17,016 nt of DNA from Candidatus Heimdallarchaeota archaeon. GTDB lineage: Archaea; Asgardarchaeota; Heimdallarchaeia; Heimdallarchaeales; Heimdallarchaeaceae. Shown here one piece after another: positions 277 through 15,540 of the stretch (position 1 is the first letter of the stretch; each line of letters starts with the position of its first letter). The stretch spans positions 1-17,016 of the forward strand of contig JAAFKJ010000200.1 of the NCBI GenBank assembly GCA_021399395.1, written 5' to 3'. Made by a program: the position numbers and the translations under genes. The notes under the pieces were generated by a model. It did not search any database. It saw only the letters and a list, made by a program, of their open reading frames with translations, and was not told the DNA's origin.

Positions 277-1860
277 TTAAGGCATTGTTTTAATTATATC
301 AGTACCTTGCATCATTAGATAATTCGCTAACTTCTTTTCTAATCCACTAAATCCATACTGTTTACATTTTTTGATAGCCATGTACTGGAGAGCAGGTCCC
401 AATGGATCACCGTTCTTGAAAGCACCTACTTGAATAAAAGCTTCCATTAAGATACGCAATTCAAGAACTTCAATACGATGAAGTTGGTTTTCATACTTCT
501 TCAAGAGCGGATAAATTTCCGTAAAACGATTTATTCTATAATATTCCTGTGTTGCCAGTAAGTCTGCAAAAGCCTTCTCTACAAATGTCATTCGTTCTTC
601 TACTGGCCTCCTCTTCAATATGGAAATTGAATTTACAATTTGCTTTTCCTCTGTCTGAGTTGCTTTTTCAATAAGGAAATTGAGGATGTGTTCAACTCGC
701 TTAGTACTTGGATTGTTCAAATTTCTTATTTCTACCAGTTGTTCACTAGTAAGATCAGCGTTCAGAAGGAATTCACTAAAGAATATGGCATTGCCATAAT
801 ATCTGTGAATGTTGGCTAGAATAGTTTGTACTAATTTTTGTAAACTTCTTGATTGAAAGTTTTGTAATCTTGATTGAATGTAGAATTTTGTTAGATTAAA
901 GATGTGGTTCATCTGTTCTTTGCTAAAATTATCTAGATTTTTTGTTGCAATTCCTTCTTCTATCAATTCATCTACTTCCTTCATTTGTCTCTGTGCTAAT
1001 TCTAGCTTACCTTGAAGCGCATAAGTAGCAGTTAAATATGAAAGACCAGTTAAGTAATAACTAGAATAGATACTTGTTTTATAGATTGGTTTTAAAATCC
1101 TTTTTGCTTCTAACAGATGCTCTTCTGCTTTTCCGAGATTGAAGGATAATTCCTGGCTAAATCCAATGAAAAAGTGAATATTTGATCTTATTTCGCTTGG
1201 TATTTGATTCAGAAAATCACTTCTTCCAAGAATTTTTCTGGTTAATTTCATCGACTTTTCCTTATTTTGAGTTTGTAGATAGATTATTGCTAAAATCCCT
1301 AGTCCCATAACAAGACCATGGTAAAAACCTCTATAATAGAAATAGTTACAACACTCTTCTAATCTATCTTCAACTCCAGCATCACGATTTACCAGCCACT
1401 CATGAATCGCGAAAGAATAAGTACAAATATAATATGCATAATCTTTTGAATCCAGCTTACTTACATTATCTATTGCCTTTGCCAATGATTCTGTGCTTAT
1501 TTTCATGTTTCCCTGAGATTTCTCGATACCCCACTTAGTTGTATAAGCTAGTGCCAATCCCTCTACATAATCAATTTTAGTAGCTAATTCAATCATTTCG
1601 TCTAGATTTATTGAGAGTTCTTCTATATTAGCATCAAGATGAAAATTTTGTTTAATTTTCAATTCTAACAAATTAATGATAGCAATATTATTATTCAAGT
1701 TTCGACTTTTTGCTAACGCTCTATCTATTAATTTTGAGATATCAGCATTCTTCTTATTTGAAGCAATAATTCTAAGTTTGTCAGTTATAGCTTTAAGATT
1801 TTCTTCTGATTTCACTTGTTTAATAAGAATTTCTATATCTTGAAACATTAATCTACCCAC
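277..1860 (-). CDS. TPR-like alpha-solenoid protein (527 aa); start may be the ATG at 1848
   Basis: Long ORF with repeated TPR-like helix pairs: LALAYTTKWGIEKSQGNMKISTESLAKAI, GLGILAIIYLQTQNKEKSMKL, IHFFIGFSQELSFNLGKAEEHLLEA, GLSYLTATYALQGKLELAQRQMKEV. No enzyme motif, signal peptide or clear HTH was recognised. Confidence 0.75.
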   Translation of the reverse strand: MGRLMFQDIEILIKQVKSEENLKAITDKLRIIASNKKNADISKLIDRALAKSRNLNNNIAIINLLELKIKQNFHLDANIEELSINLDEMIELATKIDYVEGLALAYTTKWGIEKSQGNMKISTESLAKAIDNVSKLDSKDYAYYICTYSFAIHEWLVNRDAGVEDRLEECCNYFYYRGFYHGLVMGLGILAIIYLQTQNKEKSMKLTRKILGRSDFLNQIPSEIRSNIHFFIGFSQELSFNLGKAEEHLLEAKRILKPIYKTSIYSSYYLTGLSYLTATYALQGKLELAQRQMKEVDELIEEGIATKNLDNFSKEQMNHIFNLTKFYIQSRLQNFQSRSLQKLVQTILANIHRYYGNAIFFSEFLLNADLTSEQLVEIRNLNNPSTKRVEHILNFLIEKATQTEEKQIVNSISILKRRPVEERMTFVEKAFADLLATQEYYRINRFTEIYPLLKKYENQLHRIEVLELRILMEAFIQVGAFKNGDPLGPALQYMAIKKCKQYGFSGLEKKLANYLMMQGTDIIKTMP

Positions 1861-1884
1861 TCAGATGAATAATACTTACTTTCA

Positions 1885-1892
1885 TTTATATA
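1885..1892 (-). promoter_or_regulatory. Putative TATA box of the TPR gene
   Basis: TATATAAA on the minus strand, about 25 nt upstream of GTG 1860 and 37 nt upstream of ATG 1848. Confidence 0.5.
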
Positions 1893-1938
1893 CTCGTGAA
1901 ATATTCATTTGCTAAAAAATAAAAATTTTGGAGATTTT

Positions 1939-2010
1939 TTAATTTGGGAACCATGCTGGGGGTAAGATTCCATCGTCTCCTTCATCAGGGTCGTATCTTT
2001 CGTTGTACAT
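1939..2010 (-). CDS. Small acidic peptide, copy 1 (23 aa): MYNERYDPDEGDDGILPPAWFPN
   Basis: Hand-translated from ATG 2010 to TAA 1939. 17/23 residues are identical to copy 2, with only synonymous differences in the core. RBS-like AAGAGTGAAT and a TATA-like box lie upstream. An alternative in-frame ATG is at 2016. Confidence 0.85.
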   Translation of the reverse strand: MYNERYDPDEGDDGILPPAWFPN

Positions 2011-2056
2011 TATCATTCACTCTTAGGAAAGGGTTACCATAATAGTAGAACAAAAC

Positions 2057-2064
2057 TATTAAAA
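2057..2064 (-). promoter_or_regulatory. Putative TATA box of peptide copy 1
   Basis: TTTTAATA on the minus strand, 47-54 nt upstream of the ATG; conserved at the same offset in copy 2. Confidence 0.6.
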
Positions 2065-2085
2065 CACATCAAGGAAGAAGATGAC

Positions 2086-2116
2086 AAGAAAAAAGAGAAA
2101 AAAAGAAAAGCAAAAG
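2086..2116 (-). terminator. Putative oligo-T terminator after peptide copy 2
   Basis: Minus strand is a pyrimidine/T tract (CTTTTGCTTTTCTTTTTTTCTCTTTTTTCTT) starting about 9 nt after the TGA stop, matching archaeal intrinsic terminators. Confidence 0.55.
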
Positions 2117-2124
2117 CAATTGGT

Positions 2125-2196
2125 TCAGTATGGTGACCAAGCTGGGGGTAGTATTCCGTCGTCGCCTTCATCAGGGTCGTATGTTTTGTCATTCAT
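2125..2196 (-). CDS. Small acidic peptide, copy 2 (23 aa): MNDKTYDPDEGDDGILPPAWSPY
   Basis: Hand-translated from ATG 2196 to TGA 2125. Same length as copy 1, with start and stop at equivalent positions although the stop codon differs. Confidence 0.85.
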   Translation of the reverse strand: MNDKTYDPDEGDDGILPPAWSPY

Positions 2197-2242
2197 AGTT
2201 ATTCACTCTTGGATAAGGATTAAATTAACAGCTAAATTTGAT

Positions 2243-2250
2243 TATTAAAA
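2243..2250 (-). promoter_or_regulatory. Putative TATA box of peptide copy 2
   Basis: TTTTAATA on the minus strand, 47-54 nt upstream of ATG 2196. Confidence 0.6.
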
Positions 2251-2467: not shown

Positions 2468-3691
2468 ATGATGCATACTTCAGATGAAGAGTATTTCAAC
2501 TCATTACTTAAGAAACCAACTGTGTTTAAAGACATTGGTTGTCTTTCTGTAACATATATTCCACCTTATCTTCCACATAGGGAGGAAGAACTCAGAACAC
2601 TGGCTAAATGTTTCAAAACGGTTTTTGATGGCCAAGATGGGCCATTAAAGAAAGTTTGTATAACTGGTCCTACAGGTTCGGGTAAAACAACTTTAGCAAA
2701 ACGATTTGGGCAATTATTAGAAAATATAGACAAGACTAATAATTTCATGTTAGTGTATATTAACTGCCGTATTTACAAAAGCCCATATTTGATTATTAGC
2801 ACTTTGGCTCGTAAATTGAATAAGGCTATACCTGCACGAGGATATTCGTTTGAGGAATTACAATCACTCCTAATTCGCTTACTTGATTTCTATTCTCCTA
2901 ATGTATTATTAATCTTAGATGAGGTAGATTATCTAATATCTAGAGTCGGAACTGATTTCCTTTACACTCTACTTAGGATCAGCGAAATGACAACAAAACA
3001 GTGGATTTCCTACATTTTTGTTGCTAGAAATCTCAATTTCGTATATCAAATGGATGCGAGTACTCAAAGTAGTTTTCAATCAAGCCATATATCATTAGAC
3101 AGATATTCAGAACCTGATTTGAAAGATATCATAAAATCACGTTCGGAACTTGCATTTTTTGATGATACTATAACAGAAGATGCAAACGAGCTAATTGCAG
3201 ATATTGCAAGCAGATCTGGTGATGCTAGATATGCTATAGAACTCCTGTGGGGTGCAGGACAATGTGCGGATGACGAGAATTCACCAATTGTGTATCCCGA
3301 TCATGTAAGAAAAGCGAAAGCATTAATTCACCCTGAAATTAGAAGAGAAATTATTCTAACACTAACACTTCATCAGAAATTAATCCTTCTTGCAATCATT
3401 AGAAAACTAAAGCACACCAAGAATGCGTATATTTCGACTAATGATTCTATAAGTTCCTACAAATTAGTCTGCGAGGAATACAAAGAGGAGCCAAGAAAAC
3501 ACACCCAGGTTTGGTCTTATTTGAAAGAACTTTCCAAACAGGATGTTATTACTACAAAGATTTCAGGTGAGGGTATGAGAGGGAAAACAACATTAATTAG
3601 CATTCCAGACATTTCAGTCGAAACCATTGAAATGTTCCTAGTAAAAGCAATAGAGAATCAAAAGAAAACAGTTGAACACGTAGAGAAATAG
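2468..3691 (+). CDS. cdc6: Orc1/Cdc6 family replication initiation protein
   Basis: YIPPYLPHREEE N-terminal motif, Walker A GPTGSGKTT, VYINC, Walker B LILDEVD, sensor II GDARYAIELL, C-terminal winged helix ending in GMRGKTTLISI. Confidence 0.97.
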   Translation: MMHTSDEEYFNSLLKKPTVFKDIGCLSVTYIPPYLPHREEELRTLAKCFKTVFDGQDGPLKKVCITGPTGSGKTTLAKRFGQLLENIDKTNNFMLVYINCRIYKSPYLIISTLARKLNKAIPARGYSFEELQSLLIRLLDFYSPNVLLILDEVDYLISRVGTDFLYTLLRISEMTTKQWISYIFVARNLNFVYQMDASTQSSFQSSHISLDRYSEPDLKDIIKSRSELAFFDDTITEDANELIADIASRSGDARYAIELLWGAGQCADDENSPIVYPDHVRKAKALIHPEIRREIILTLTLHQKLILLAIIRKLKHTKNAYISTNDSISSYKLVCEEYKEEPRKHTQVWSYLKELSKQDVITTKISGEGMRGKTTLISIPDISVETIEMFLVKAIENQKKTVEHVEK

Positions 3692-3705: not shown

Positions 3706-4005
3706 ATGGTAAACAAAATTGAAACAGAGAGTCTGCCCAGAGTAGCACTAGAAGATGTTTTTTCTTCTAAAGGCAGAGTAAGGATATTGAAGTTATTAGC
3801 AGAGATTGGAGAACTTAACGTATCTGCAATTTCAAGAACTATTAACCTCAACCATTCTGCAGTTAAGGAACATCTAAAATTCCTTACTAAGGTAGGCCTA
3901 CTTAAAGAAAAGAGATTTGGTCGAATATTGATCTATCAATTTAGGGATAGTAATATTCTGGCTCATTCTTTGAAACAACTTTTCAAAATATGGGATGAAA
4001 ACTGA
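3706..4005 (+). CDS. ArsR-like winged-helix DNA-binding protein
   Basis: VFSSKGRVRILKLL...ELNVSAISRTINLNHSAVKEHLKFLTKVGLLKEKRFGRILIY is a typical wHTH. It starts 14 nt after cdc6, so it is likely co-transcribed. Confidence 0.9.
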   Translation: MVNKIETESLPRVALEDVFSSKGRVRILKLLAEIGELNVSAISRTINLNHSAVKEHLKFLTKVGLLKEKRFGRILIYQFRDSNILAHSLKQLFKIWDEN

Positions 4006-4013
4006 AAGAAATT

Positions 4014-4091
4014 TGGTGCCTCGACCGGGATTTGAACCCGGGTCTGCGGAGTGAGAGTCCGCAATGATTGGCCGAGCTACACCATCGAGGC
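4014..4091 (-). tRNA. tRNA-Glu(CTC) with encoded CCA
   Basis: Reverse complement: GCCTCGA-TG-GTGTAGCTCGGCCAATCAT-T-GCGGA-CTCTCAC-TCCGC-AGAC-CCGGG-TTCAAAT-CCCGG-TCGAGGC-ACCA; no intron. Confidence 0.97.
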
Positions 4092-5066: not shown

Positions 5067-6038
5067 TTATTCTTTTGTTCCTTCTTTTACAAGTTTTGCT
5101 AAAAATGCACTTAACTGAATATTACTTGAAGCTCCCTCAGATATTCTAAAGTCAACTTCAGCGAGATATTCATTTATTTCCAATTTCTTTAAATCTGGAA
5201 TATCAAGTGTGGGTATCTCTCTAAATATCTGATAAGTTACATCTGTTCCTGAAAGACCAAATTCTAGTATGAGTTTTTGTAAAACATCTCTTGATTTGTA
5301 AAAATCACCCTCGAGAGAATATTTGAGCATCTCTCTTATTCTTTCAGGATCAGCATGGCCTACAGTTTGAAGAACAGTTACTTTTTCTATAGACTTTCCT
5401 GAAGCAACAGTTGATTGAATGATATTAATTGCCTTCCTCAAATCACCCTCAGAGATGTATAGAACTGTGTCAAGACCTTCTTTATCATAAACCAATTTTT
5501 CATTCTTGCATATATGAATGAGAAAATCTTTCATACTTTTCTCATCTAGTGGTCTGAATCTAAAAATAGCACATCTTGATTGTATTGGTTCTATTATCTT
5601 ACTGGAATAATTACAAATCAAGGCAAATCTACTAGTTTTAACATATCTTTCCATTGTTCTTCTCAGAGCATGTTGAGCAGCAGATGTCAAATTGTCAGCT
5701 TCATCCAAACAAATTATTTTGAAAGGCACTCCTCCAAATGAAGCAGTTCTAGCAAATTCTTTTACTTTAGTCCTAATTGCATCAATACCACGATCATCAG
5801 ATGCGTTTAGTTCTAATAGATTTCTTGAAACATTACTTGGACCAAATAAATCGTTAGCTAATGCTAATAATGCGGTAGTTTTCCCAGTACCAGGGGGGCC
5901 TGCAAGAAGAAGATGGGGTAGATTCCCTCTTTCAACGAAACCCTTAAGCCTAGATATAATATCATCGTGCCCTCTAAGATCATCTAGCGTCTTAGGTCTA
6001 TATTTCTCTGTCCACATTACATCGTAATTGGTTTCCAT
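5067..6038 (-). CDS. rfcS: Replication factor C small subunit
   Basis: WTEKYRPKTLDD, PHLLLAGPPGTGKTT, LELNASDDRGID, DEAD and IIEPIQSRC RFC boxes; no intein. Confidence 0.98.
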   Translation of the reverse strand: METNYDVMWTEKYRPKTLDDLRGHDDIISRLKGFVERGNLPHLLLAGPPGTGKTTALLALANDLFGPSNVSRNLLELNASDDRGIDAIRTKVKEFARTASFGGVPFKIICLDEADNLTSAAQHALRRTMERYVKTSRFALICNYSSKIIEPIQSRCAIFRFRPLDEKSMKDFLIHICKNEKLVYDKEGLDTVLYISEGDLRKAINIIQSTVASGKSIEKVTVLQTVGHADPERIREMLKYSLEGDFYKSRDVLQKLILEFGLSGTDVTYQIFREIPTLDIPDLKKLEINEYLAEVDFRISEGASSNIQLSAFLAKLVKEGTKE

Positions 6039-6186: not shown

Positions 6187-7614
6187 ATGCAAGAGATGGT
6201 TATCGATATGACTAGTACTAGTTATGTACAGGAAGAGAAACATAAACAAAATGAAACCAAAGAGGGAAAAGAATATACTATTAGAGGTTTCAAAATTAAG
6301 ATAGAATACAAAGAGGGGACGCTATTTTATAGAGCTCTACCTGAAATCGATTTGAATCAAGAACCTTTGCTGTTCGCTGAGCTTTCCTCCCTGATAAAGA
6401 ACAATCAAAATAGACTTGGGAAAGAGATACTAAAGTTTGATGAATTAGTTGATACAGTCAAATCCATCTGCATGTGGAAAATTCTTGAAATAAGCAATTT
6501 AAACATTGACCCAGAAATCTTTGCTGAGTTGTTTATCTATCGATTAATCAAAATTGACAGAATTATTCCTTTCCTAATCGACGATAATATAAATGAGATA
6601 TATATGGATCAGAAGGGTTCGCCCATATACCTAGACCATCAAACCTTTGGTAGGTGCAATACTCCTATCGTTTTAGAGGAAGAAGAATTAAAGGCTCTAC
6701 TTACAAGAATCAAATTAGAACACCCCATTACTATTTCCTCAAAAAAACCATCATTAAAAGTTGAATTTCAAACACGATTATTCCATTCTCGTATTTCCAT
6801 GGATTTTCCACCTTTATCTCCGAACGGACCTACTTTCAACATAAGAAAACTTAAGAGAAAACCCCTAAGACTTGTGGATTTGATTAACTTAAGTACTCTA
6901 CCTACAGCTGTTGCATCTTATCTAATTGAGGCAATTCAAAGTAGGTTAAATCTAACAGTAATAGGAGAACCAAATGCTGGAAAAACAACACTAGCAAACG
7001 CATTGGATTTGTATACACCAAAACATTGGAGAAAAATCGCAATAGAAGATGCCATAGAATCAATAAATCAAGCTCCTATGGGTTATAAACAGCTCTCAAT
7101 TCAGGTGGATTCTTTTGAATCAAATAAATCAATTCATACTAAGACTACAGAGATATTGAAATTACTACACAGATCACCAGATTGGATTTATTTAGGAGAA
7201 ATTCAATCTAGAGAGCATACTCAAGCTATGTTTGAAGCATTGAATGCAGGTTTAAAAGGGATACAAACAGCACATGCTGATTCTGCTGAGAAAATACTAA
7301 GAAGATGGGAAAACCTCCATAAGATTTCAAGAACGGACTTCTTATCACTAAATATTCTAGTTGTGATGAAAAGAGAAATCACTCAAAGCACGTTTGTTAG
7401 AAAAATATTGGAAATTTATGAGGTCGACCCTAGTAGCAATACAACTGAAGGATATGGTTTTCTAAAGAAAATCTATGACTGCGAAATGAATGAAAAACAA
7501 ACATTTGATCTGATTAAGAAGAATTCAATTCTGAAAGATAAATTAGTAGAGATTATGAAAAGGAAGGAGATGCTAGATAACATCTGCAATGAATCTTGGA
7601 GACAAGGTGAATGA
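6187..7614 (+). CDS. Type II/IV secretion / type IV filament ATPase (TadA/CpaF/VirB11/ArlI-like)
   Basis: DDNINEI, GPTFNIRK, Walker A GEPNAGKTT, Asp box IED..E, Walker B RSPDWIYLGEI, His box GIQTAHADS. Confidence 0.92.
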   Translation: MQEMVIDMTSTSYVQEEKHKQNETKEGKEYTIRGFKIKIEYKEGTLFYRALPEIDLNQEPLLFAELSSLIKNNQNRLGKEILKFDELVDTVKSICMWKILEISNLNIDPEIFAELFIYRLIKIDRIIPFLIDDNINEIYMDQKGSPIYLDHQTFGRCNTPIVLEEEELKALLTRIKLEHPITISSKKPSLKVEFQTRLFHSRISMDFPPLSPNGPTFNIRKLKRKPLRLVDLINLSTLPTAVASYLIEAIQSRLNLTVIGEPNAGKTTLANALDLYTPKHWRKIAIEDAIESINQAPMGYKQLSIQVDSFESNKSIHTKTTEILKLLHRSPDWIYLGEIQSREHTQAMFEALNAGLKGIQTAHADSAEKILRRWENLHKISRTDFLSLNILVVMKREITQSTFVRKILEIYEVDPSSNTTEGYGFLKKIYDCEMNEKQTFDLIKKNSILKDKLVEIMKRKEMLDNICNESWRQGE

Positions 7615-9109: not shown

Positions 9110-10150
9110 TCAATCAAAACTTGAAGATAATCTCTCGCTGATTTCATTAATAATGTCTTCATAGTCATATGAAAACATGAATTCAGCATGATCTCTTATT
9201 GTAAACTCAGCAACATTTGTAGATTGTGCCACAAGCTTTTGTGTTAGAGCAGAAGAATGCTTTATCTTTCTAGATAAGAGCTTATCTGCAACATAAGCAG
9301 AAGCTGCTGAAAGAGGGTAGGGTCTTCTTCCTCCACGATCAGGATAAGGTATTCGTTCAAGAATTTTCAAACAAAGAAGCTGAAGCATCCTTTCATAGAC
9401 ATAAGCATCAATTGAATATTTCTTCTGAACTCTTTCCTTTATTGTAGAACAACTACAAATCAAAGAACAAATTCTGAAAACGTATTCTTCACTTCTTCTA
9501 ATTCCGCTTGAAGCTGGTTTGATATTTAGGTCTTGCATAAGACTCAACAGATTCTTTCCAAGAACTCTATGACCTAATTCCCTGTAAGTATTCACTATTT
9601 CTTTTAACGTTAAAGGACAATTGGTTCCTGATTCACGCACACTTAGAAATAGTGCCATAGCTGAAAGCAAAACATGGTTTGTTATCTTCTTTTTATGTTC
9701 TGACTTATACTGATGGTAAAGAAAGAGTGTTCTTTCTCGTATCTTATTTGGAACTTGAAGTCGTGAAAAAACTTCATTTAAAATCTTCAAAGTTCGAAAA
9801 TCAGTTTCTTTTCCTTTAATGGCTCCAGGAATATGATAATAAGTTTTGAATTTTCTAAACTTATATTGCATAGTTTCATCTAAAAGAGATCCATTTGAAT
9901 CCCTAAACATATATTCTTCCACAGAACCAATAGATGAACCTAGAGAACTTACAACAGCCAGATTGTTATTTATCGACGTATACTGTTGGCTTTTTCTATT
10001 TCCACCGGTTGTCACCGAACCTAATTGAAAAGACGAAGATTCCAGAATTGGATCATGTACAAGACCACACCTCTGGCACACATACTCCCCGTTCTCTTGA
10101 ATTATTCGAGATCCACATTCATCACACAAGCAATTTTCCATTTTACTCAA
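9110..10150 (-). CDS. tfb: Transcription initiation factor IIB (TFB) family protein, divergent paralog; start probably ATG 10141
   Basis: Zn ribbon CDECGS..ENGEYVCQRCGLV, two cyclin-like repeats, GRRPYPLSAASAY and C-terminal HTH LTQKLVAQSTNVAEFTIRD. Confidence 0.88.
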   Translation of the reverse strand: MSKMENCLCDECGSRIIQENGEYVCQRCGLVHDPILESSSFQLGSVTTGGNRKSQQYTSINNNLAVVSSLGSSIGSVEEYMFRDSNGSLLDETMQYKFRKFKTYYHIPGAIKGKETDFRTLKILNEVFSRLQVPNKIRERTLFLYHQYKSEHKKKITNHVLLSAMALFLSVRESGTNCPLTLKEIVNTYRELGHRVLGKNLLSLMQDLNIKPASSGIRRSEEYVFRICSLICSCSTIKERVQKKYSIDAYVYERMLQLLCLKILERIPYPDRGGRRPYPLSAASAYVADKLLSRKIKHSSALTQKLVAQSTNVAEFTIRDHAEFMFSYDYEDIINEISERLSSSFD

Positions 10151-10398
10151 GAGAAATAACTATACCGAAACTATTTAGAATTTTTAAGATTCAAACGGAG
10201 CTGTGGTTTACTGTTACTAGAATTCAATGTCTTCAAAAATAGTTTCAATGTATTTGAAAAGCAAGAGGAGGCAGTTGACTGAAAGTAATATATAATCGAT
10301 TTTTGTTGAAAAATGGTTAGAAAACTGAGATAATCTAAGACGAACAGTTTCTAGAAAATTGTGCTGTTTTTAAAATATAGTTTACATAGAATAATAGA

Positions 10399-13233
10399 AT
10401 GAAACACAAGAAAATGATAATGGCAGTTTTATTTTTCTATCTAATATTAGCATTAGAATCGCCAATCGCGATTAGTGATGATGGTTCTTACACTATTGAT
10501 AAAGAGCTAAGAAGCCTAAATGCTGATGGAAATTTCATCAAAGAAGACAGAGAGATAGAGGAGAAAAACACACAATTCAAAACTTTAGGAGAAGAAGAGA
10601 CATTAGAAGAAACACTGAATTCTTTCAATCCTAATGTAAATATAACTGGGGACTATGCTGGCGAGGATATAGAGGGCACTATAGGGGATAATTCAACCAT
10701 TATTCTTCCTGGAAATGGAGAATACTCACTCGAAGGAAATGTAACTAATTTAGAGTCACAATATATTCAGAATCCTGGAGCTGAGGAGGAATTACAGTTT
10801 TATTCAGAAGATGCAACTAACGTTGGTCTTGGGTTAGAAAGGATAGAAGAAGCAAATAGCTTTAATGGAGATTATGCATGGAAATTCTATTCTCAGAACA
10901 CCGAATCTATTACGTATGCATTATATCAGGAAGATTTACCATTATATCAGACAGATACAGAGATATCTTACAATTATTTTCTTGTTTCAAACTCAAGCTT
11001 ACAAAATGTTGTGAACTCATCATTGATATTCGATTTTGTATTTGATACATGTCGAATAATGGTAATTCATTGGCATTATACAGATATCGAACCCCCCTCA
11101 GTAGGTGATAATACTACATCTCCCTTCATTGTATATAGGCTTCTTCAGAATAGTAGTTGGGATGATCAATGGAATGATTTCACCTTATCAATCTCAGATT
11201 TATTCGCAGACGGAGATCCATTTATTCCTACTATGATGAAATCTTTTGGTATATATGTAATCTCACCGAAAATATCAGAATGTACAGTTTTAATCGATGA
11301 TTTTCAGGTCAAAACATCAGTTGACCCTTCAGACATCAATTTAACAATAAATGATATACAAGTGACTTCAATAGGTCCGGGAACAGGGTCTGTTGATGCT
11401 ATAATTACGTTCGAAGAAGCACAATATGTTTATGATATCATCTGGGATCATAATTCAAGTAAATCAATTACAGGTAATTTCTCAACGAAATTATTAGGAA
11501 TAGTTGAAATGACTTGGGAAAAACAAATTGTTTTTTACAATCAGTCTACACTTCTATATTCCATAAGTATTCTCAATTTGAGTGAATTAATTAATCAGAT
11601 AAATATCACATATCCAGATAACTGGTTAGACTTTGGTAGTCCAGTAGGTGCTGATATCATATCTAATGATGACTTAGGTAATGGATACAAGAGGTTGTCT
11701 CTTGCCAAGCAAGAAACATTTTACGTAATTCACTGTGATTTTGCACTGACAAATCATATAGTTGAAGTGAATTACGAAAATACATCAGTTTTTGAAACTT
11801 TGAATGCATCATTTGTATTCCAAGAGCTAGTATCTACACCATTCATTTACATATTTTGGGACGCAGGAGGTGCTACATGTGAGTTAGCCAGCAATAATAT
11901 ATCTTATTTATTCCCTCCATCGATTATTGATGGGTCTATTGATATTACTTTTCTAGTAGTTGATGGAAACTTCATTGGATATAGAAATGATACAATTGAC
12001 ATTCTTAGAAAGCCAGCAATTATGACTGTAGAAGAACAGATTAGCATACCAAAATATGCAATGAAAGAACTGAAGGTATCCTATGATAGTTTAGATCCAT
12101 ATGTAGAAATAGAAAATACAGTGGTTGAGGCGAATCTAGACGGTGAAATAATTCCAGCAATTATGCAGGATGGTGAGTATAGCATCTTTATTTCATCGTT
12201 TTACCTGACACAAAGTCAATATGTACTTGAAATTCGAGCTCAATCTCTAACCCATGCAACAATATCGAAATCGATCAATGTTACTATCGAGGATAGTGAG
12301 ATTGTAATTGGATTTCAATATGAACCATCTGAAAATCCAGCAGAATATGTTTTGTGCTTTAATATCACTTCAAGTGGAGCATCTGTGGGGTATGCACCAA
12401 TTACCATTGAAATAAATCAAGATATTCAACAAACTGGAATAACTAAAATTGATGGTATCTACACCTATGTTGTTGAATTACCTCTAGATATTTTATCTGT
12501 AAATGTTACATGTACAATATTCAAAGTTACACAAATTGTAGGTATAAGAACTTTTGAAATAGAATTTGAAAATAGTTTAGTCGGAGCAGAAAGAAGTGCT
12601 GATGATGTGCTCATTTCCACAAATATAACATTGATTTATGATATTCATTATTCAATAAATCATGATAGATGGATACACATGTTAGAGGAAGAGATGGTCC
12701 CAATATTGGATGCATACATAGAAACCTCTTCATTAAGAATTCCTGTAACATGGGATTCAAATGCTTGTTACTGGCAAATGCAAGCAAATGAGGAAACAGA
12801 CGATCATAAACTAGTAATCATAACAGAAGGACCAGATTTAGAAATTACTGATGAAGAAACTGATGATGAAATAAAAATCCACTTTGTGATAACAGCTGAA
12901 ACAAAAGAGTACTCAAATTTATCAGTTTTATACCATTTCAACGAAAGTTATACTACCTCAAAATATGACTGGAACCTTATAGTAAACAATCAAAACGATG
13001 TTACCAAACTCTATGGTTTGGAAGTAAATAATCTGTATGCATACTTTACCAATCTAGATGTTGTAAAAGGCAGTATTCTTGTTTTTGATCTGGTGGGGAG
13101 TAAAAATTCACAAACAAACCCATTTACAAATATAGTAATTCCCGTAGTTTCGAGTACAAGTGTGCTTCTAGGGGCAATAACAGTTGGAATTAAAATCTAC
13201 AATAAGAGAAAAGGCATGATACTAGAAATTTAG
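10399..13233 (+). CDS. Large acidic secreted, membrane-anchored surface protein (944 aa)
   Basis: N-terminal signal peptide (MKHKK plus hydrophobic stretch), beta-rich acidic body with many N-x-S/T sequons, C-terminal TM helix followed by basic NKRKG. Confidence 0.85.
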   Translation: MKHKKMIMAVLFFYLILALESPIAISDDGSYTIDKELRSLNADGNFIKEDREIEEKNTQFKTLGEEETLEETLNSFNPNVNITGDYAGEDIEGTIGDNSTIILPGNGEYSLEGNVTNLESQYIQNPGAEEELQFYSEDATNVGLGLERIEEANSFNGDYAWKFYSQNTESITYALYQEDLPLYQTDTEISYNYFLVSNSSLQNVVNSSLIFDFVFDTCRIMVIHWHYTDIEPPSVGDNTTSPFIVYRLLQNSSWDDQWNDFTLSISDLFADGDPFIPTMMKSFGIYVISPKISECTVLIDDFQVKTSVDPSDINLTINDIQVTSIGPGTGSVDAIITFEEAQYVYDIIWDHNSSKSITGNFSTKLLGIVEMTWEKQIVFYNQSTLLYSISILNLSELINQINITYPDNWLDFGSPVGADIISNDDLGNGYKRLSLAKQETFYVIHCDFALTNHIVEVNYENTSVFETLNASFVFQELVSTPFIYIFWDAGGATCELASNNISYLFPPSIIDGSIDITFLVVDGNFIGYRNDTIDILRKPAIMTVEEQISIPKYAMKELKVSYDSLDPYVEIENTVVEANLDGEIIPAIMQDGEYSIFISSFYLTQSQYVLEIRAQSLTHATISKSINVTIEDSEIVIGFQYEPSENPAEYVLCFNITSSGASVGYAPITIEINQDIQQTGITKIDGIYTYVVELPLDILSVNVTCTIFKVTQIVGIRTFEIEFENSLVGAERSADDVLISTNITLIYDIHYSINHDRWIHMLEEEMVPILDAYIETSSLRIPVTWDSNACYWQMQANEETDDHKLVIITEGPDLEITDEETDDEIKIHFVITAETKEYSNLSVLYHFNESYTTSKYDWNLIVNNQNDVTKLYGLEVNNLYAYFTNLDVVKGSILVFDLVGSKNSQTNPFTNIVIPVVSSTSVLLGAITVGIKIYNKRKGMILEI

Positions 13234-13413: not shown

Positions 13414-15540
13414 TTAATCTGTATGAATCTGATTAATCATGGCTTTAGTTGCTTCATTATATTTCACTCTTTCAATAGAGTTAGCAATTATTTCCAAGCT
13501 CTTCAGATAGGGATTCTTATTTACTTTACCACTTATTATAAGCTCTGAGTTAACGAAATTTTTAGCTTTAAGATATTGGTATGGAGCTTTATCAGATTCA
13601 TTTTCATCAACCATTCTTGCTGCGTCATTAGCAGACATACCCAAAACAATCTCTGCTAGTTTTCCAGCACATAGAACATTGATATTTCCAGTACCATCAT
13701 TAGCTATGAAAGTAAATAAAATTCTATTTAGAGGTTCAGTTACTTTTCCGTGCTCAGAACAAGTATAATTAGAGTTCTCTTTTTTCGTCTTCTTTTTACA
13801 CTCAGGGCAGAGGGGATACACAAATTGTTTCTCGATTAACTTAATTACAGTAGCTTGAATAGTAACATCATCACCCTCTTCTATATCTTCAATATCTTTT
13901 AATTTCTCCAAATTTGTTTCTTTTGGGGATACGGTTAAACTAGAAACAAATCCTTGTGGATTAGATGAATTAGAAAGAGATTTTTTTACAATTGTATTTC
14001 TGGTAATAAGGAGTTCAGAACCATATCCTGTATCTTCTTTGACTTTAGCATTGAACAATTCTATATGATCTCCTACAGCTAAACCAGTAAGTTTTGATAC
14101 ATTTTCTCTCCAACTAGTTATTCGAATGGATGCTGTCTGGTCTTCAATTTTAAGTTTCCTTAATTGAACAGTATCATTGTTTTTTGTAACAATATCTTGA
14201 ACTGCAGATAAATCTGTTATTATCCCTTTAACATGAATTTCTACCAAGTCATCAGATATATCCTTAATATCCATAAAATCAAAGTCAAGAGGTTCAATAT
14301 CATCGGAATCAGATGGTTTTGTATCAAGAAGTGTTTGGTTTCCACAATGAATTTCAATATCATCGTTTCTACCTTTTCTTGTGTATCCATTTTTTATGAA
14401 CAAGACTTTATTGATGTCTTCTTCTGTGATTAGTTCTGTTTTATCATCCCACAGAACCACACCAATTATACCTGATTTATCAGAAATTGATACGTTTCTA
14501 ACTTTACCTTTAGTACCATCTTCTCTTGTGAATTCATGTATGGGGACTATATTGACAATTAATCCTTTAGTGGAAACAAGATCACTAACACCAGTAATCT
14601 GTTCGATGGTTGTTAATTGTGCATCAACAGCAGTCCCAGTCCCAGAACCAACAAAACCTTTCTTAACAATGATATCTTCTGCTTTATCTTGTTTGGAGAC
14701 ATTTGTATATCTACTGGAATGTAATTCTGTAAAACCCCGTAATCCTTCCTTAGCAGCTAATCCAACTACTTCTATAATATCACCAAAAGCTAAGCTATCA
14801 ATAGCATCTACTTTATCATTCCAAAAATTGATATGAATTTCACCAGTTTCGTCACCTACAAGTAGCCCTCGCTTTTTTCCTTTTGTTCCATCCTTCCTTT
14901 CAAACTCTAGCAAGTCATCAATTTGGGTAATTCTGGCCACTAAAGATAAATCAATCTCATTTCTTTTGATATCTTTTATTTTCACAAACATAGACTGGAC
15001 TTCAGGAAGATTGGTTTCATCAACTCCTGAAGGACGAATTTGAACTTGACTACGAATTCCTAAGTGTACTTCTACTGATTGATCTCGACTTAGTTTTGTA
15101 TAACCATTTAAAATACGAATTGGATCTCCCACTTTGACATTTTTATCTTGTAATTCAGACACAATCTGATCCCAAAATACAACCCTTACCTTGCCAGTTG
15201 TATCTTCAATTAGGATTGATTGTAGTACTCCATCTGTACCATCCTTTTTCTTAAAGGAATAACGATCATAAATTCTTAAAATTCTTCCAAGAATATTAAC
15301 ACTTGTTATTTCAGGAGCCAACTGGTCAACTGTTAGCTGAGATTGTACTTGAATTGGAGGTTCAGAAGATAAGTCAACACTCATTTCTCTTGCAACAATA
15401 TGAGCAGCGCCCAATTCGGTCACAAACTCCCCTAGTTCTTCCATTTTATCATTTATGCGTTTGTGAATCTCCTCTTTACCTAAGCTAGTTTCATTAGAGA
15501 TTATTTCTATTATTTCTTTTAGTGAGCGTTGACTTGACAT
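13414..15540 (-). CDS. rpa: Replication protein A (ssDNA-binding), multiple OB folds plus Zn finger
   Basis: Repeated OB motifs (F.R.DGT.G...D.TG...V.W) four times, then a fifth OB fold containing CPECKK..CSEHG and DGTGNI, and a C-terminal helix. Confidence 0.93.
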   Translation of the reverse strand: MSSQRSLKEIIEIISNETSLGKEEIHKRINDKMEELGEFVTELGAAHIVAREMSVDLSSEPPIQVQSQLTVDQLAPEITSVNILGRILRIYDRYSFKKKDGTDGVLQSILIEDTTGKVRVVFWDQIVSELQDKNVKVGDPIRILNGYTKLSRDQSVEVHLGIRSQVQIRPSGVDETNLPEVQSMFVKIKDIKRNEIDLSLVARITQIDDLLEFERKDGTKGKKRGLLVGDETGEIHINFWNDKVDAIDSLAFGDIIEVVGLAAKEGLRGFTELHSSRYTNVSKQDKAEDIIVKKGFVGSGTGTAVDAQLTTIEQITGVSDLVSTKGLIVNIVPIHEFTREDGTKGKVRNVSISDKSGIIGVVLWDDKTELITEEDINKVLFIKNGYTRKGRNDDIEIHCGNQTLLDTKPSDSDDIEPLDFDFMDIKDISDDLVEIHVKGIITDLSAVQDIVTKNNDTVQLRKLKIEDQTASIRITSWRENVSKLTGLAVGDHIELFNAKVKEDTGYGSELLITRNTIVKKSLSNSSNPQGFVSSLTVSPKETNLEKLKDIEDIEEGDDVTIQATVIKLIEKQFVYPLCPECKKKTKKENSNYTCSEHGKVTEPLNRILFTFIANDGTGNINVLCAGKLAEIVLGMSANDAARMVDENESDKAPYQYLKAKNFVNSELIISGKVNKNPYLKSLEIIANSIERVKYNEATKAMINQIHTD

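Follow-up and report, generated by a model that had tools for sequence, protein, structure and literature searches.

The 17,016-nucleotide contig JAAFKJ010000200.1 of a Candidatus Heimdallarchaeota archaeon (assembly GCA_021399395.1; this whole stretch is called the window here) carries two short tandem genes for peptides of 23 amino acids, followed on the same strand by a gene for an all-helical protein resembling tetratricopeptide repeat (TPR) proteins. The window is contig C126 of a source genome of 2.8 Mb in 201 contigs, which is 81.8% complete. A preliminary description of this DNA had proposed that peptide and TPR protein form a ligand-receptor pair analogous to the RRNPP systems of Bacillota. 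Linkage, co-variation and a predicted complex in the receptor groove support this proposal, and the module is probably a cognate peptide-receptor pair, similar to Rap-Phr and other RRNPP systems in its logic without being a member of that family.

All elements of the module lie on the minus strand. The TPR receptor gene (277-1848) encodes 523 amino acids from an ATG at 1848; its frame is open up to a GTG at 1860, which would give 527 amino acids, and the ATG is the more likely start. Directly 5' of this ATG lies a putative Shine-Dalgarno (SD)-like sequence, GAGTGGGTAG (1853-1862). From the stop codon of the proximal peptide gene at 1939, the gap is 78 nucleotides to the GTG and 90 nucleotides to the ATG; the tandem, co-oriented peptide genes 78 nucleotides upstream of the TPR gene, as first described, were thus confirmed, with this distance valid for the GTG start. 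The proximal peptide gene (1939-2010, 23 codons plus stop, MYNERYDPDEGDDGILPPAWFPN) encodes the predicted cognate ligand of the adjacent TPR protein, and the distal peptide gene (2125-2196, 23 codons plus stop, MNDKTYDPDEGDDGILPPAWSPY) has the same core but S instead of F after the W; both micro-ORFs (open reading frames) share YDPDEGDDGILPPAW-x-P. If an in-frame upstream ATG at 2016 is used, the proximal ORF (1939-2016) has 25 amino acids (MIMYNERYDPDEGDDGILPPAWFPN), but the start at 2010 (MYNER..., 23 amino acids) is more likely because an SD-like AGAGTGA is located 8 nucleotides 5' of this second ATG, as in the paralogs. The SD-like sequence AGAGTGAAT is present at 2015-2023 for the proximal and at 2201-2209 for the distal gene, in line with the (A)GAGTGA conserved 5-8 nucleotides 5' of peptide-gene ATGs. 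A direct repeat of 142 nucleotides (1938-2079 and 2124-2265, 73% identity) holds both peptide genes together with their AGAGTGA sequences and promoters.

Each gene of the module is accompanied by its own candidate transcription signals. A conserved promoter element, composed of an upstream box and a TATA element (TGTCA-N2-TTCTTyCTTG-N3-GTTTTAATAG), precedes the proximal peptide gene at 2056-2086 and is found again before the distal one at 2242-2271. The proximal gene is followed by a T-tract (1914-1925) and the distal gene by a T-rich tract (2085-2110), both of which may serve as archaeal terminators. The TPR gene has a TATA-like element of its own (GTATATAAATGAAAGT, 1878-1893), located 30-45 nucleotides 5' of the ATG. 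Across the genus the peptide-gene box TGTCA-N2-TTCTTyCTTG-N3-GTTT(TAATAG) is conserved, with GAGTGA about 40 nucleotides further on and 5-8 nucleotides 5' of the ATG, and a run of at least five Ts occurs within 60 nucleotides 3' of the peptide stop in 44 of 53 loci. The TPR genes of paralog loci have a different conserved TATA-like box of the TTTATAAAT type, located after the proximal peptide gene. A TATA-like word was found in 51 of the 53 intergenic regions, at a median of 36 nucleotides to the TPR ATG; such words arise by chance in AT-rich DNA, and the argument rests on the visible conservation. Because each gene type has its own conserved promoter element, peptide and receptor look separately transcribed. 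Allowing up to two mismatches, the peptide box is present at 10 places in the source genome, 8 of them before peptide genes, while the reversed control yielded 2. The matches elsewhere are only two, equal to the control, so that no wider regulon is seen in the source genome.

A subset of the TPR genes (L005, L041, L044, L046, L053 and that of source-genome contig C22) has a direct repeat, TGCAAT-N5-TGCAA(T/C), for example AACTGCAATTTAACTGCAAT, 5' of the TATA-like box; this candidate operator for a regulator is also found 3' of an orphan peptide gene on C21.

The arrangement of these signals bears on the idea that the micro-ORF is a cis-acting leader or arrest peptide that controls the TPR gene without any function in trans. 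Its location upstream of and co-oriented with the TPR gene, with T-tracts following, would suit such a role, and the acidic run with prolines and the ending P-P-x-W-x-P-stop recall sequences that disturb the ribosome. However, the TPR gene appears to have its own conserved TATA-like box after the T-tract, and two or three complete peptide units occur in tandem, each with promoter and SD; on these grounds the leader peptide was rejected. In addition, one orphan copy stands without a TPR gene, and the groove co-variation and the predicted complex reported below have no place in a model that acts in cis only. We consider a leader peptide very improbable.

The peptides follow the consensus M-x-K-x-K-Y-D-P-(E/D)-(D/E)-G-D-(E/D)-x-I-(L/T/G)-P-P-x-W-x-P, after which comes a stop codon, N or G, and they are typically 21-23 amino acids long. 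Conservation spans residues 6-22, with no split into leader and core. All 98 distinct peptides collected (18-40 amino acids) are acidic and have no N-terminal hydrophobic stretch, as can be read from their sequences; that the peptides are acidic and lack a signal sequence had been stated for the window pair from the start. Coding was tested with 92 distinct copies of the common spacing, which had been picked by PP-x-W and at least three acidic residues, these features being fixed by construction. The unselected codons Y-11, D-10, P-9, G-6, D-5 and P+5 showed an entropy of at most 0.35 bits at codon positions 1 and 2 and of 0.86-1.73 bits at position 3. As these six residues (Y, D, P, G, D and the final P) hardly change although their third codon positions are free to vary, the peptide is, judged by this codon pattern, translated. 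It is under purifying selection. The shared 17-codon core of the two window peptides has 6 base differences, 5 of which are synonymous, a likeness well above what chance would produce. Six of six tested peptide sequences were absent from a collection of 15 billion proteins; since the peptides are moreover below the size used by gene callers, the ligand half of the module is invisible in present annotations.

A non-coding repeat, for instance a set of origin-recognition boxes, would be the alternative at this point. The repeats lie in a 607-nucleotide spacer beside the divergent orc1/cdc6 gene (2468-3691), and their core contains a short dyad and a G-run on the plus strand. This explanation is contradicted by the codon-position pattern in the 92 copies, and the repeats are direct and not inverted. 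The other source-genome copies examined show no Orc1 among the ORFs listed within 6 kb; the orphan on C21 has one, the second Orc1/Cdc6 of the source genome, about 12 kb away. Origin boxes were rejected because of the codon-position pattern and the loci without a nearby Orc1, and the chance that they explain the repeat is negligible.

The module belongs to a family of linked gene pairs. The source genome contains 9 peptide copies; at five places (C126, C170, C22, C9 and C6) a paralogous TPR gene of 490-535 amino acids is located directly downstream, and one copy is interrupted by a contig end. For the TPR protein, 171 relatives were found in a large protein collection at E<=0.001, the only names being 'hypothetical' or 'TPR repeat protein' and the hosts Candidatus Heimdallarchaeaceae, Heimdallarchaeota or Asgard archaea. 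The TPR family is present in 24 of 41 genomes of relatives, all from one genus (23 of the 24 genomes of this genus and the source genome), which is named Candidatus Heimdallarchaeaceae in public records, and in none of 16 genomes from the other families of the order. A DNA pattern back-translated from the peptide gave the same picture: it was found in 20 of 400 genomes of the phylum, all belonging to this genus (19 of 24 and the source genome), and in none of 375 other genomes, including six from other genera of the family; the reversed pattern used as control gave 0. Fetched loci from 22 genomes of the genus were scanned in six frames for co-oriented, W-anchored peptide genes up to 700 nucleotides upstream of TPR ORFs. 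One to three such genes were found for 64 of 69 non-redundant full-length TPR ORFs (39 with one, 16 with two and 9 with three). The five exceptions are two ORFs with less than 100 nucleotides of upstream sequence, a distant paralog (about 20% identity), a degraded copy and one ORF with Y-for-W peptides. The co-occurrence that had been proposed as a check of the pair was thus observed, the peptide motif being found only in the genus with the TPR family.

The two peptides with Y in place of W are encoded on the minus strand of G009:C23 (L046), upstream of the TPR gene at 9642-11174, and end in ..LLPPLYFPN and ..LTPPMYFPN; they were passed over by the W-anchored scan. No clear compensating change was seen at the receptor residues predicted to contact the W. 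A distant clade of TPR paralogs (loci L033 and L065-L069 in genomes G007, G002, G018, G008, G005 and G004), with 20-25% identity and about 550-560 amino acids, is always located downstream of a larger gene with a product ending in ...HISGHSSP...VMVHTPEKT..., and no YDP...PPxW peptide gene is present at these loci. A second peptide family upstream of the distant paralogs was rejected, as the apparent conserved 29-amino-acid ORF is the C-terminal end of the larger upstream gene.

Several copies show signs of turnover. The orphan peptide gene on contig C21 (26158-26232, plus strand, L061) keeps the complete promoter box, but its tryptophan codon is replaced by TGA (..ILPPM*RP) and it is not followed by a TPR gene; a G+C-rich 23S rRNA-like sequence starts on the opposite strand about 300 nucleotides further on. 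It is probably a decaying copy. Its neighbourhood (PPase, PEPCK, a pilin-like DUF7289 protein, an ABC ATPase and an FtsX permease) holds intact peptide-TPR units in three relatives. On contig C170 a TnpB/OrfB_IS605-type gene with a Cas12f1-like TNB domain (E 3e-12; C170:43403-44677, plus strand, L060:1004-2278) is located directly upstream of the peptide gene. Because the 3' remnant of another peptide copy (...PPAWFPN-stop) is left between the two, the TnpB insertion probably destroyed a distal peptide gene. Some distal peptide ORFs of the long array L040 (G002:C330; for example 921-1099, 7356-7500 and 11586-11739) extend past W-x-P or overlap the next peptide ORF, as where ...AISPPLWCLRKEMIYDEN runs into MKTKYDPDEG..., which suggests ongoing duplication and decay of peptide genes.

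The module might be a toxin-antidote, defence or self-recognition cassette in which the peptide neutralises or arms the TPR protein; its expanded and rapidly diversifying arrays would then have a role in conflict (virus defence, addiction or kin discrimination). The restriction to one genus, the up to 11 matches of the TPR family in a genome, frequently arranged as tandem arrays that include pseudogenes and fragments, the TnpB/IS605 element inserted at one locus, the tRNA gene flanking the window copy and the diversification of the specificity residues would all fit this explanation. On the other hand, PADLOC matched 0 of 4 receptors at E<=0.01, no enzymatic or toxic domain was detected, and no relative of the TPR family was found in viral contigs. 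TPR-only proteins are also not known to act as toxins. We give such a cassette a small chance.

Three genomes of the genus (G002, G018 and G008; loci L041, L042 and L044) share one syntenic site at which an ABC ATPase of about 282 amino acids and an FtsX-type permease of 603 amino acids are encoded directly upstream of, and co-oriented with, a peptide-peptide-TPR unit; a homologous pair was typed by Pfam in the source genome. The pair could be a peptide exporter, or its location could be mere synteny. It is one of the points in favour of a third possibility, that the peptide gives rise to a product that is exported or modified, in the manner of ribosomally synthesized and post-translationally modified peptides (RiPPs) and the TPR protein a chaperone, immunity protein or processing scaffold. 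Short multi-copy tandem genes with a conserved frame and few variable positions are also reminiscent of precursor arrays. However, no modifying enzyme was seen beside the modules in the ORF tables inspected, the neighbours in most fetched loci not being listed there, the ABC pair is confined to the one site, and the peptides show no leader/core split. No C39 peptidase exporter (Peptidase_C39) was found in the 81.8%-complete source genome. A RiPP-like precursor thus has only a slim chance.

The AlphaFold2 model of the TPR protein is an all-helical solenoid of 27 helices with a predicted local distance difference test score (pLDDT) of 90.5 and a predicted template modelling score of 0.87. The protein belongs to the TPR-solenoid superfamily by fold: 564 of 949 chains ranked by Foldseek align at Z>=8, and the listed matches are TPR proteins. 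The call of an all-helical TPR-like protein in the preliminary description is borne out by this model and by the generic TPR matches. Membership in a Pfam TPR sequence family was not found, the window protein matching TPR_MalT only, with 18.3 bits against a cut-off of 45 (E=0.0016); some family members carry precomputed PF13424, PF13374 or PF17874 hits. NCBIfam gave no match, and a search of the ESM Atlas led to unnamed or TPR-poor clusters that offered no clue. No helix-turn-helix (HTH) domain at E<=0.01, protease or modifying-enzyme domain was detected in the protein with Pfam and NCBIfam, and no transporter adjoins the module in the window, the T2SSE-family ATPase at 6187-7614 being about 4 kb away; what the first reading had said about missing HTH, enzymes and transporters agrees with this. 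When a profile of 77 family members was run against the sequences of all PDB chains, no hit was better than E 0.01 and no RRNPP protein was listed.

Structural comparison with VIA-align gave APC5 as best match (5a31_O, Z 22.0, root-mean-square deviation (rmsd) 9.0, 465 residues aligned), and among the further matches were APPBP2 with the RxxGP degron (8jal_A, Z 18.8, rmsd 5.0, 367 aligned), the Rap protein of phage phi3T and B. subtilis RapF with peptides (Z 17.9, rmsd 5.4-5.6, 314-315 aligned, which is nearly the whole Rap chain), NprR (Z 16.5) and LGN (Z 16.1-16.5, rmsd 7.2-7.9, 310-316 aligned). The N-terminus is modelled as further helical hairpins, and a Rap-like N-terminal bundle would be indistinguishable from TPR hairpins in the model. 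The most conserved part of the protein is formed by the C-terminal 124 amino acids (residues 400-523), with 53-87% identity to the paralogs versus 38-75% for the whole protein; this cap lies outside the predicted interface. Folded alone (pLDDT 89.2) and compared with 48,161 chains, it gave as top matches the C-terminal ends of Rgg2 (Z 12.3, rmsd 3.2, 116 aligned), a Listeria Rgg-like regulator (11.7), PlcR (11.3), NprR (10.9), PrgX (9.8) and RopB (9.0). TSK and LGN (11.5) are on a par with these, and every one of the scores falls short of about 13, the value up to which the tool regards helical-repeat matches as noise. The likeness of the cap to the C-terminal ends of RRNPP proteins is a lead, not proof of kinship.

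Binding of the peptide in the TPR groove had been suggested as a further check, and the prediction agrees with it. The complex was predicted from the receptor family alignment and an alignment of 65 peptides, in three runs and with three controls, and reached an interaction score (ipSAE) of 0.82 (runs 0.82, 0.87 and 0.80) against 0.01 for the best control. Among the solved complexes in the calibration of the tool, 116 of 157 attain the 0.82 mark, as do 2 of 215 mismatched pairs; the figures are only a rough guide here, as own alignments were used and the calibration has no chain below 30 residues. The runs agreed in at least 88% of the contacts, and the pLDDT of the peptide was 71-78. Peptide residues 6-23 sit in the concave TPR groove of the model with more than 100 contacts, touching receptor residues from about 26 to 384; the W20-x-P22 end is placed near residues 104-148 and 177-185, and L16 near 263-267 and 309. 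The interface holds the invariant or near-invariant receptor residues Y144, D306, Q312 and R384, and its positions vary less than the remaining ones among residues 1-390 (mean entropy 1.58 vs 2.05 bits).

Such a complex would also be expected if the peptide were a permanent structural subunit that fills and stabilises the TPR superhelix, as in the anaphase-promoting complex (APC/C), and carried no signal. The predicted footprint is long, with residues 6-23 making more than 100 contacts along most of the solenoid, which fits this explanation; the fold matches include Cut9-Hcn1 (2xpi_A, Foldseek E 8.4e-4) and CDC26-APC6 (3hym_L, Z 14.3, rmsd 6.5, 293 aligned), and obligate partners, too, should be tightly linked and co-vary. 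The separate and different promoters with T-tracts between them point instead to independent control of the peptide level, and 1-3 different peptide genes per receptor as well as the orphan peptide gene on C21 likewise count against a fixed subunit, although none of these points is decisive. We regard the permanent subunit as unlikely, although its chance is not a small one.

Whether peptides and receptors change together was analysed by mutual information (MI) in 66 proximal pairs, two of which are duplicates of source-genome loci, with six variable positions of the peptide compared with each of the 523 positions of the receptor. The top-ranked receptor position lies inside the predicted interface in 3 of 6 cases; for the top three ranks this is true for 7 of 18 places, compared with 1.45 in entropy-matched random sets (p about 0.0004), and for the top ten for 10 of 60 compared with 4.5 (p 0.037). 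Receptor position 181 ranks second for peptide position 19 and position 104 third for position 21, while position 264 ranks 13th for position 16 but highest after normalisation. The pairings are readable: T16 occurs with N264 in 18 of 18 pairs, and L or G16 goes with Y or F264; at position 19 (PP-x-W), A is found with M181 (12/15), L, M, F or I with Q181 (40/44) and G with H181 (5/7); at position 21 (W-x-P), F is found with K66 (11/11), H with L66 (9/9), R with S66 (8/10) and W with H104 (7/8); and G13 goes with D316 in 6 of 6 pairs. In the window, F21 of the proximal peptide fits K66 of the receptor, and S21 of the distal peptide does not. The co-variation of variable peptide positions with predicted contact residues, likewise proposed beforehand as a check, was thus found.

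A quick maximum-likelihood tree of 71 receptors shows that the type of the gene-proximal peptide follows the receptor clade, which is also expected from linked duplication alone. Independent changes were therefore counted on a quick tree with 64 non-redundant rows. For E13 versus T/S316 there are 10 independent pairs, 7.4 of which changed the same way and 0 the opposite way (p 0.016); for T16 versus N264 and G13 versus D316 there are 4 independent pairs each, with 3.5-4 the same way and 0 opposite. At 25 multi-peptide loci the distal peptides fit the four rules in 22/34, 15/29 (19/181), 1/23 (21/66) and 12/24 cases, and the proximal ones in 25/25, 21/21, 13/17 and 12/18, the latter fit being circular because the rules were derived from proximal pairs. 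Since the distal peptides obey the rules much more rarely, the co-variation signal belongs to the adjacent pair and not just to the history of the locus. The possibility that distal peptides are ligands of the preceding TPR gene in an array was rejected, as they fit in only 3/7, 3/7 and 1/6 cases. For 5 of 34 distal peptides, another locus of the same genome was found to encode a receptor that matches in full, with locus sampling being incomplete.

The cognate peptide-receptor pair suggests the following mechanism. Each peptide would be made from its own short transcription unit consisting of promoter box, SD, 23 codons and T-tract, and would bind as an extended strand of 18 residues that runs along the concave channel formed by the neighbouring TPR solenoid in the cytoplasm. 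The conserved peptide residues Y6, D7, P8, G11, D12, P17, P18, W20 and P22 would sit in the groove with receptor residues Y144, D306, Q312 and R384, and the variable residues 13, 16, 19 and 21 would be read by the variable groove residues 316, 264, 181 and 66/104, respectively, so that each paralog would recognise its own gene-proximal peptide. Occupancy of the groove would then change the shape or the oligomeric state of the receptor, and this change would control how the conserved C-terminal cap (400-523) deals with a common partner. The cap is presumably the output or oligomerisation surface, and because no DNA-binding domain was found in the receptor, output would be by protein-protein contact. 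We infer that the peptide is a regulatory ligand and not a fixed subunit, and that its binding changes the output.

Several points weigh against this interpretation. The evidence, that is linkage, purifying selection, separate promoters, restriction to one genus, the predicted complex and the co-variation, is computational throughout. Of nine sequencing runs found for the stretch, eight contain its DNA (sediment and cold-seep metagenomes from four studies), and none of the nine is an RNA run with the locus. The predicted buried strand of 18 residues fits a permanent subunit as well as a reversible ligand. Furthermore, the complex model was exposed to many structures of TPR proteins with peptides, and no calibration chain is as short as the peptide; since many such complexes have been solved, part of the score may come from likeness to them. 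The top-30 MI lists are not enriched for interface positions, the enrichment being clear at the very top ranks only, most of the single tests comprise four independent pairs, which is too few for significance, and the trees are quick ones and not the result of a careful search. The circularity of the proximal rule fit counts here as well. Finally, 25 of 69 receptors have extra distal peptides that lack a matched receptor, which a simple scheme of one ligand and one receptor does not predict.

A more far-reaching version of the peptide-receptor pair would be an independently evolved archaeal cell-to-cell communication, with non-Sec export of the peptides, re-import by Opp-type permeases and a bank of TPR receptors with co-evolving codes that define pherotypes inside one Heimdallarchaeial genus. 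At least 10 Opp-type binding proteins of the source genome score over the cut-off, and the peptide may be imported via such a permease; the exit route would possibly be the ABC/FtsX pair beside some arrays. We consider this communication doubtful at present. If this is true, Archaea would have their first case of peptide-based quorum sensing, and it would come from an organism closely related to the ancestor of eukaryotes.

The module in the window is flanked by a tRNA-Leu gene on one side and the divergent orc1/cdc6 gene on the other. The tRNA gene (GAG anticodon, 1-83) directly adjoins the TPR gene on its 3' side. Between the distal peptide promoter and orc1/cdc6, an imperfect palindrome GTTGAATGTGAAAG...CTTACATTTCAAC is located at 2272-2305, and a similar string was found 5' of peptide genes in a relative (L012); it could be an Orc1-binding or regulatory site. 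Beyond an ArsR-type HTH gene (3706-4005) lies a tRNA-Glu gene (CTC, 4014-4091). Genes for replication and transcription are clustered in the window: Orc1/Cdc6 is followed by the RFC small subunit (5067-6038), a TFIIB-like protein (9110-10150) and a 708-amino-acid RPA-like protein with CDC24_OB3 and Rep_fac-A_C domains (13414-15540).

A full-text search of the literature, with supplements lying outside it, found no description of a peptide-TPR receptor module in Archaea, which agrees with the initial impression that the module is undescribed. Passages of a preprint on cultured Heimdallarchaeaceae (10.1101/2025.11.06.686947) make no mention of TPR, transcriptome or proteome. Bacillota and their phages are known to have dedicated peptide-receptor gene pairs whose specificity code can be read, and none was found described for Archaea. 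With this module, Asgard archaea, a group of interest for its relationship to the eukaryotic ancestor, would have a family of peptide sensors with up to about 10 paralogs in a genome. The predicted contact pairs 16/264, 19/181, 21/66 plus 104 and 13/316 make the specificity directly testable without growing the organism, and the shared conserved C-terminal cap points to one common partner, whatever the output is.

Similar architectures are found in eukaryotic TPR proteins. With APC5, the best VIA-align match, and the APC/C subunit pairs Cut9-Hcn1 and APC6-CDC26 the archaeal receptor shares the long TPR superhelix, and in the structures of these pairs a short partner occupies the TPR groove. 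However, the APC/C proteins are constitutive subunits of a eukaryotic E3 ligase, show no pairing of adjacent genes and no paralog arrays, and are not similar to the receptor in sequence (9-15% aligned identity); since the archaeal family is confined to one genus, it is not the ancestor of these subunits. LGN/Pins, with its partners NuMA, Inscuteable and Frmpd, is similar in that a TPR superhelix takes up a long extended peptide in its inner channel, with a footprint comparable in length to 18 residues, but it is a eukaryotic scaffold whose partners are segments of large proteins and not products of dedicated micro-genes. APPBP2, a substrate receptor of CRL2 and the best-fitting long alignment, reads a short proline-containing C-terminal motif (the RxxGP degron); the archaeal peptides end with W-x-P followed by the stop or one more residue. 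APPBP2 is a eukaryotic ubiquitin-ligase adaptor, whereas nothing found links the archaeal module to a ligase.

The closest parallel in logic is provided by the RRNPP(A) systems, although the differences are considerable. There is no sequence or profile homology to Rap, NprR, PlcR, Rgg, PrgX or AimR, and the similarity is at the level of the fold only, with 7-12% identity. RRNPP(A) systems are found in Bacillota and their mobile elements, the archaeal module in one genus of Archaea. RRNPP mature peptides have about 5-10 residues; the archaeal receptor has about 525 amino acids and about 13 helical hairpins, and about 18 peptide residues are predicted to be bound. The archaeal peptides are strongly acidic and, differing in this from exported pro-peptides, have neither an export signal nor a hydrophobic stretch, and their genes are located upstream of the receptor gene with their own promoter, 1-3 per receptor. 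Secretion, processing and re-import, which define RRNPP signalling according to the abstracts of two articles (PMC7564271, PMC11343458), are hypothetical for the archaeal module. The similarities concern the architecture of the system: a small peptide gene lies beside the gene for a cytoplasmic TPR receptor, and the peptide is predicted to bind in the concave groove. Like Rap-Phr in particular (but also NprR-NprX, PlcR-PapR, Rgg-SHP, PrgX and AimR-AimP), the module occurs as many paralogous cassettes per genome with co-varying specificity residues. As with Rap, no HTH was found in the Heimdallarchaeaceae receptor, and output by protein contact would follow the logic of Rap-Phr.

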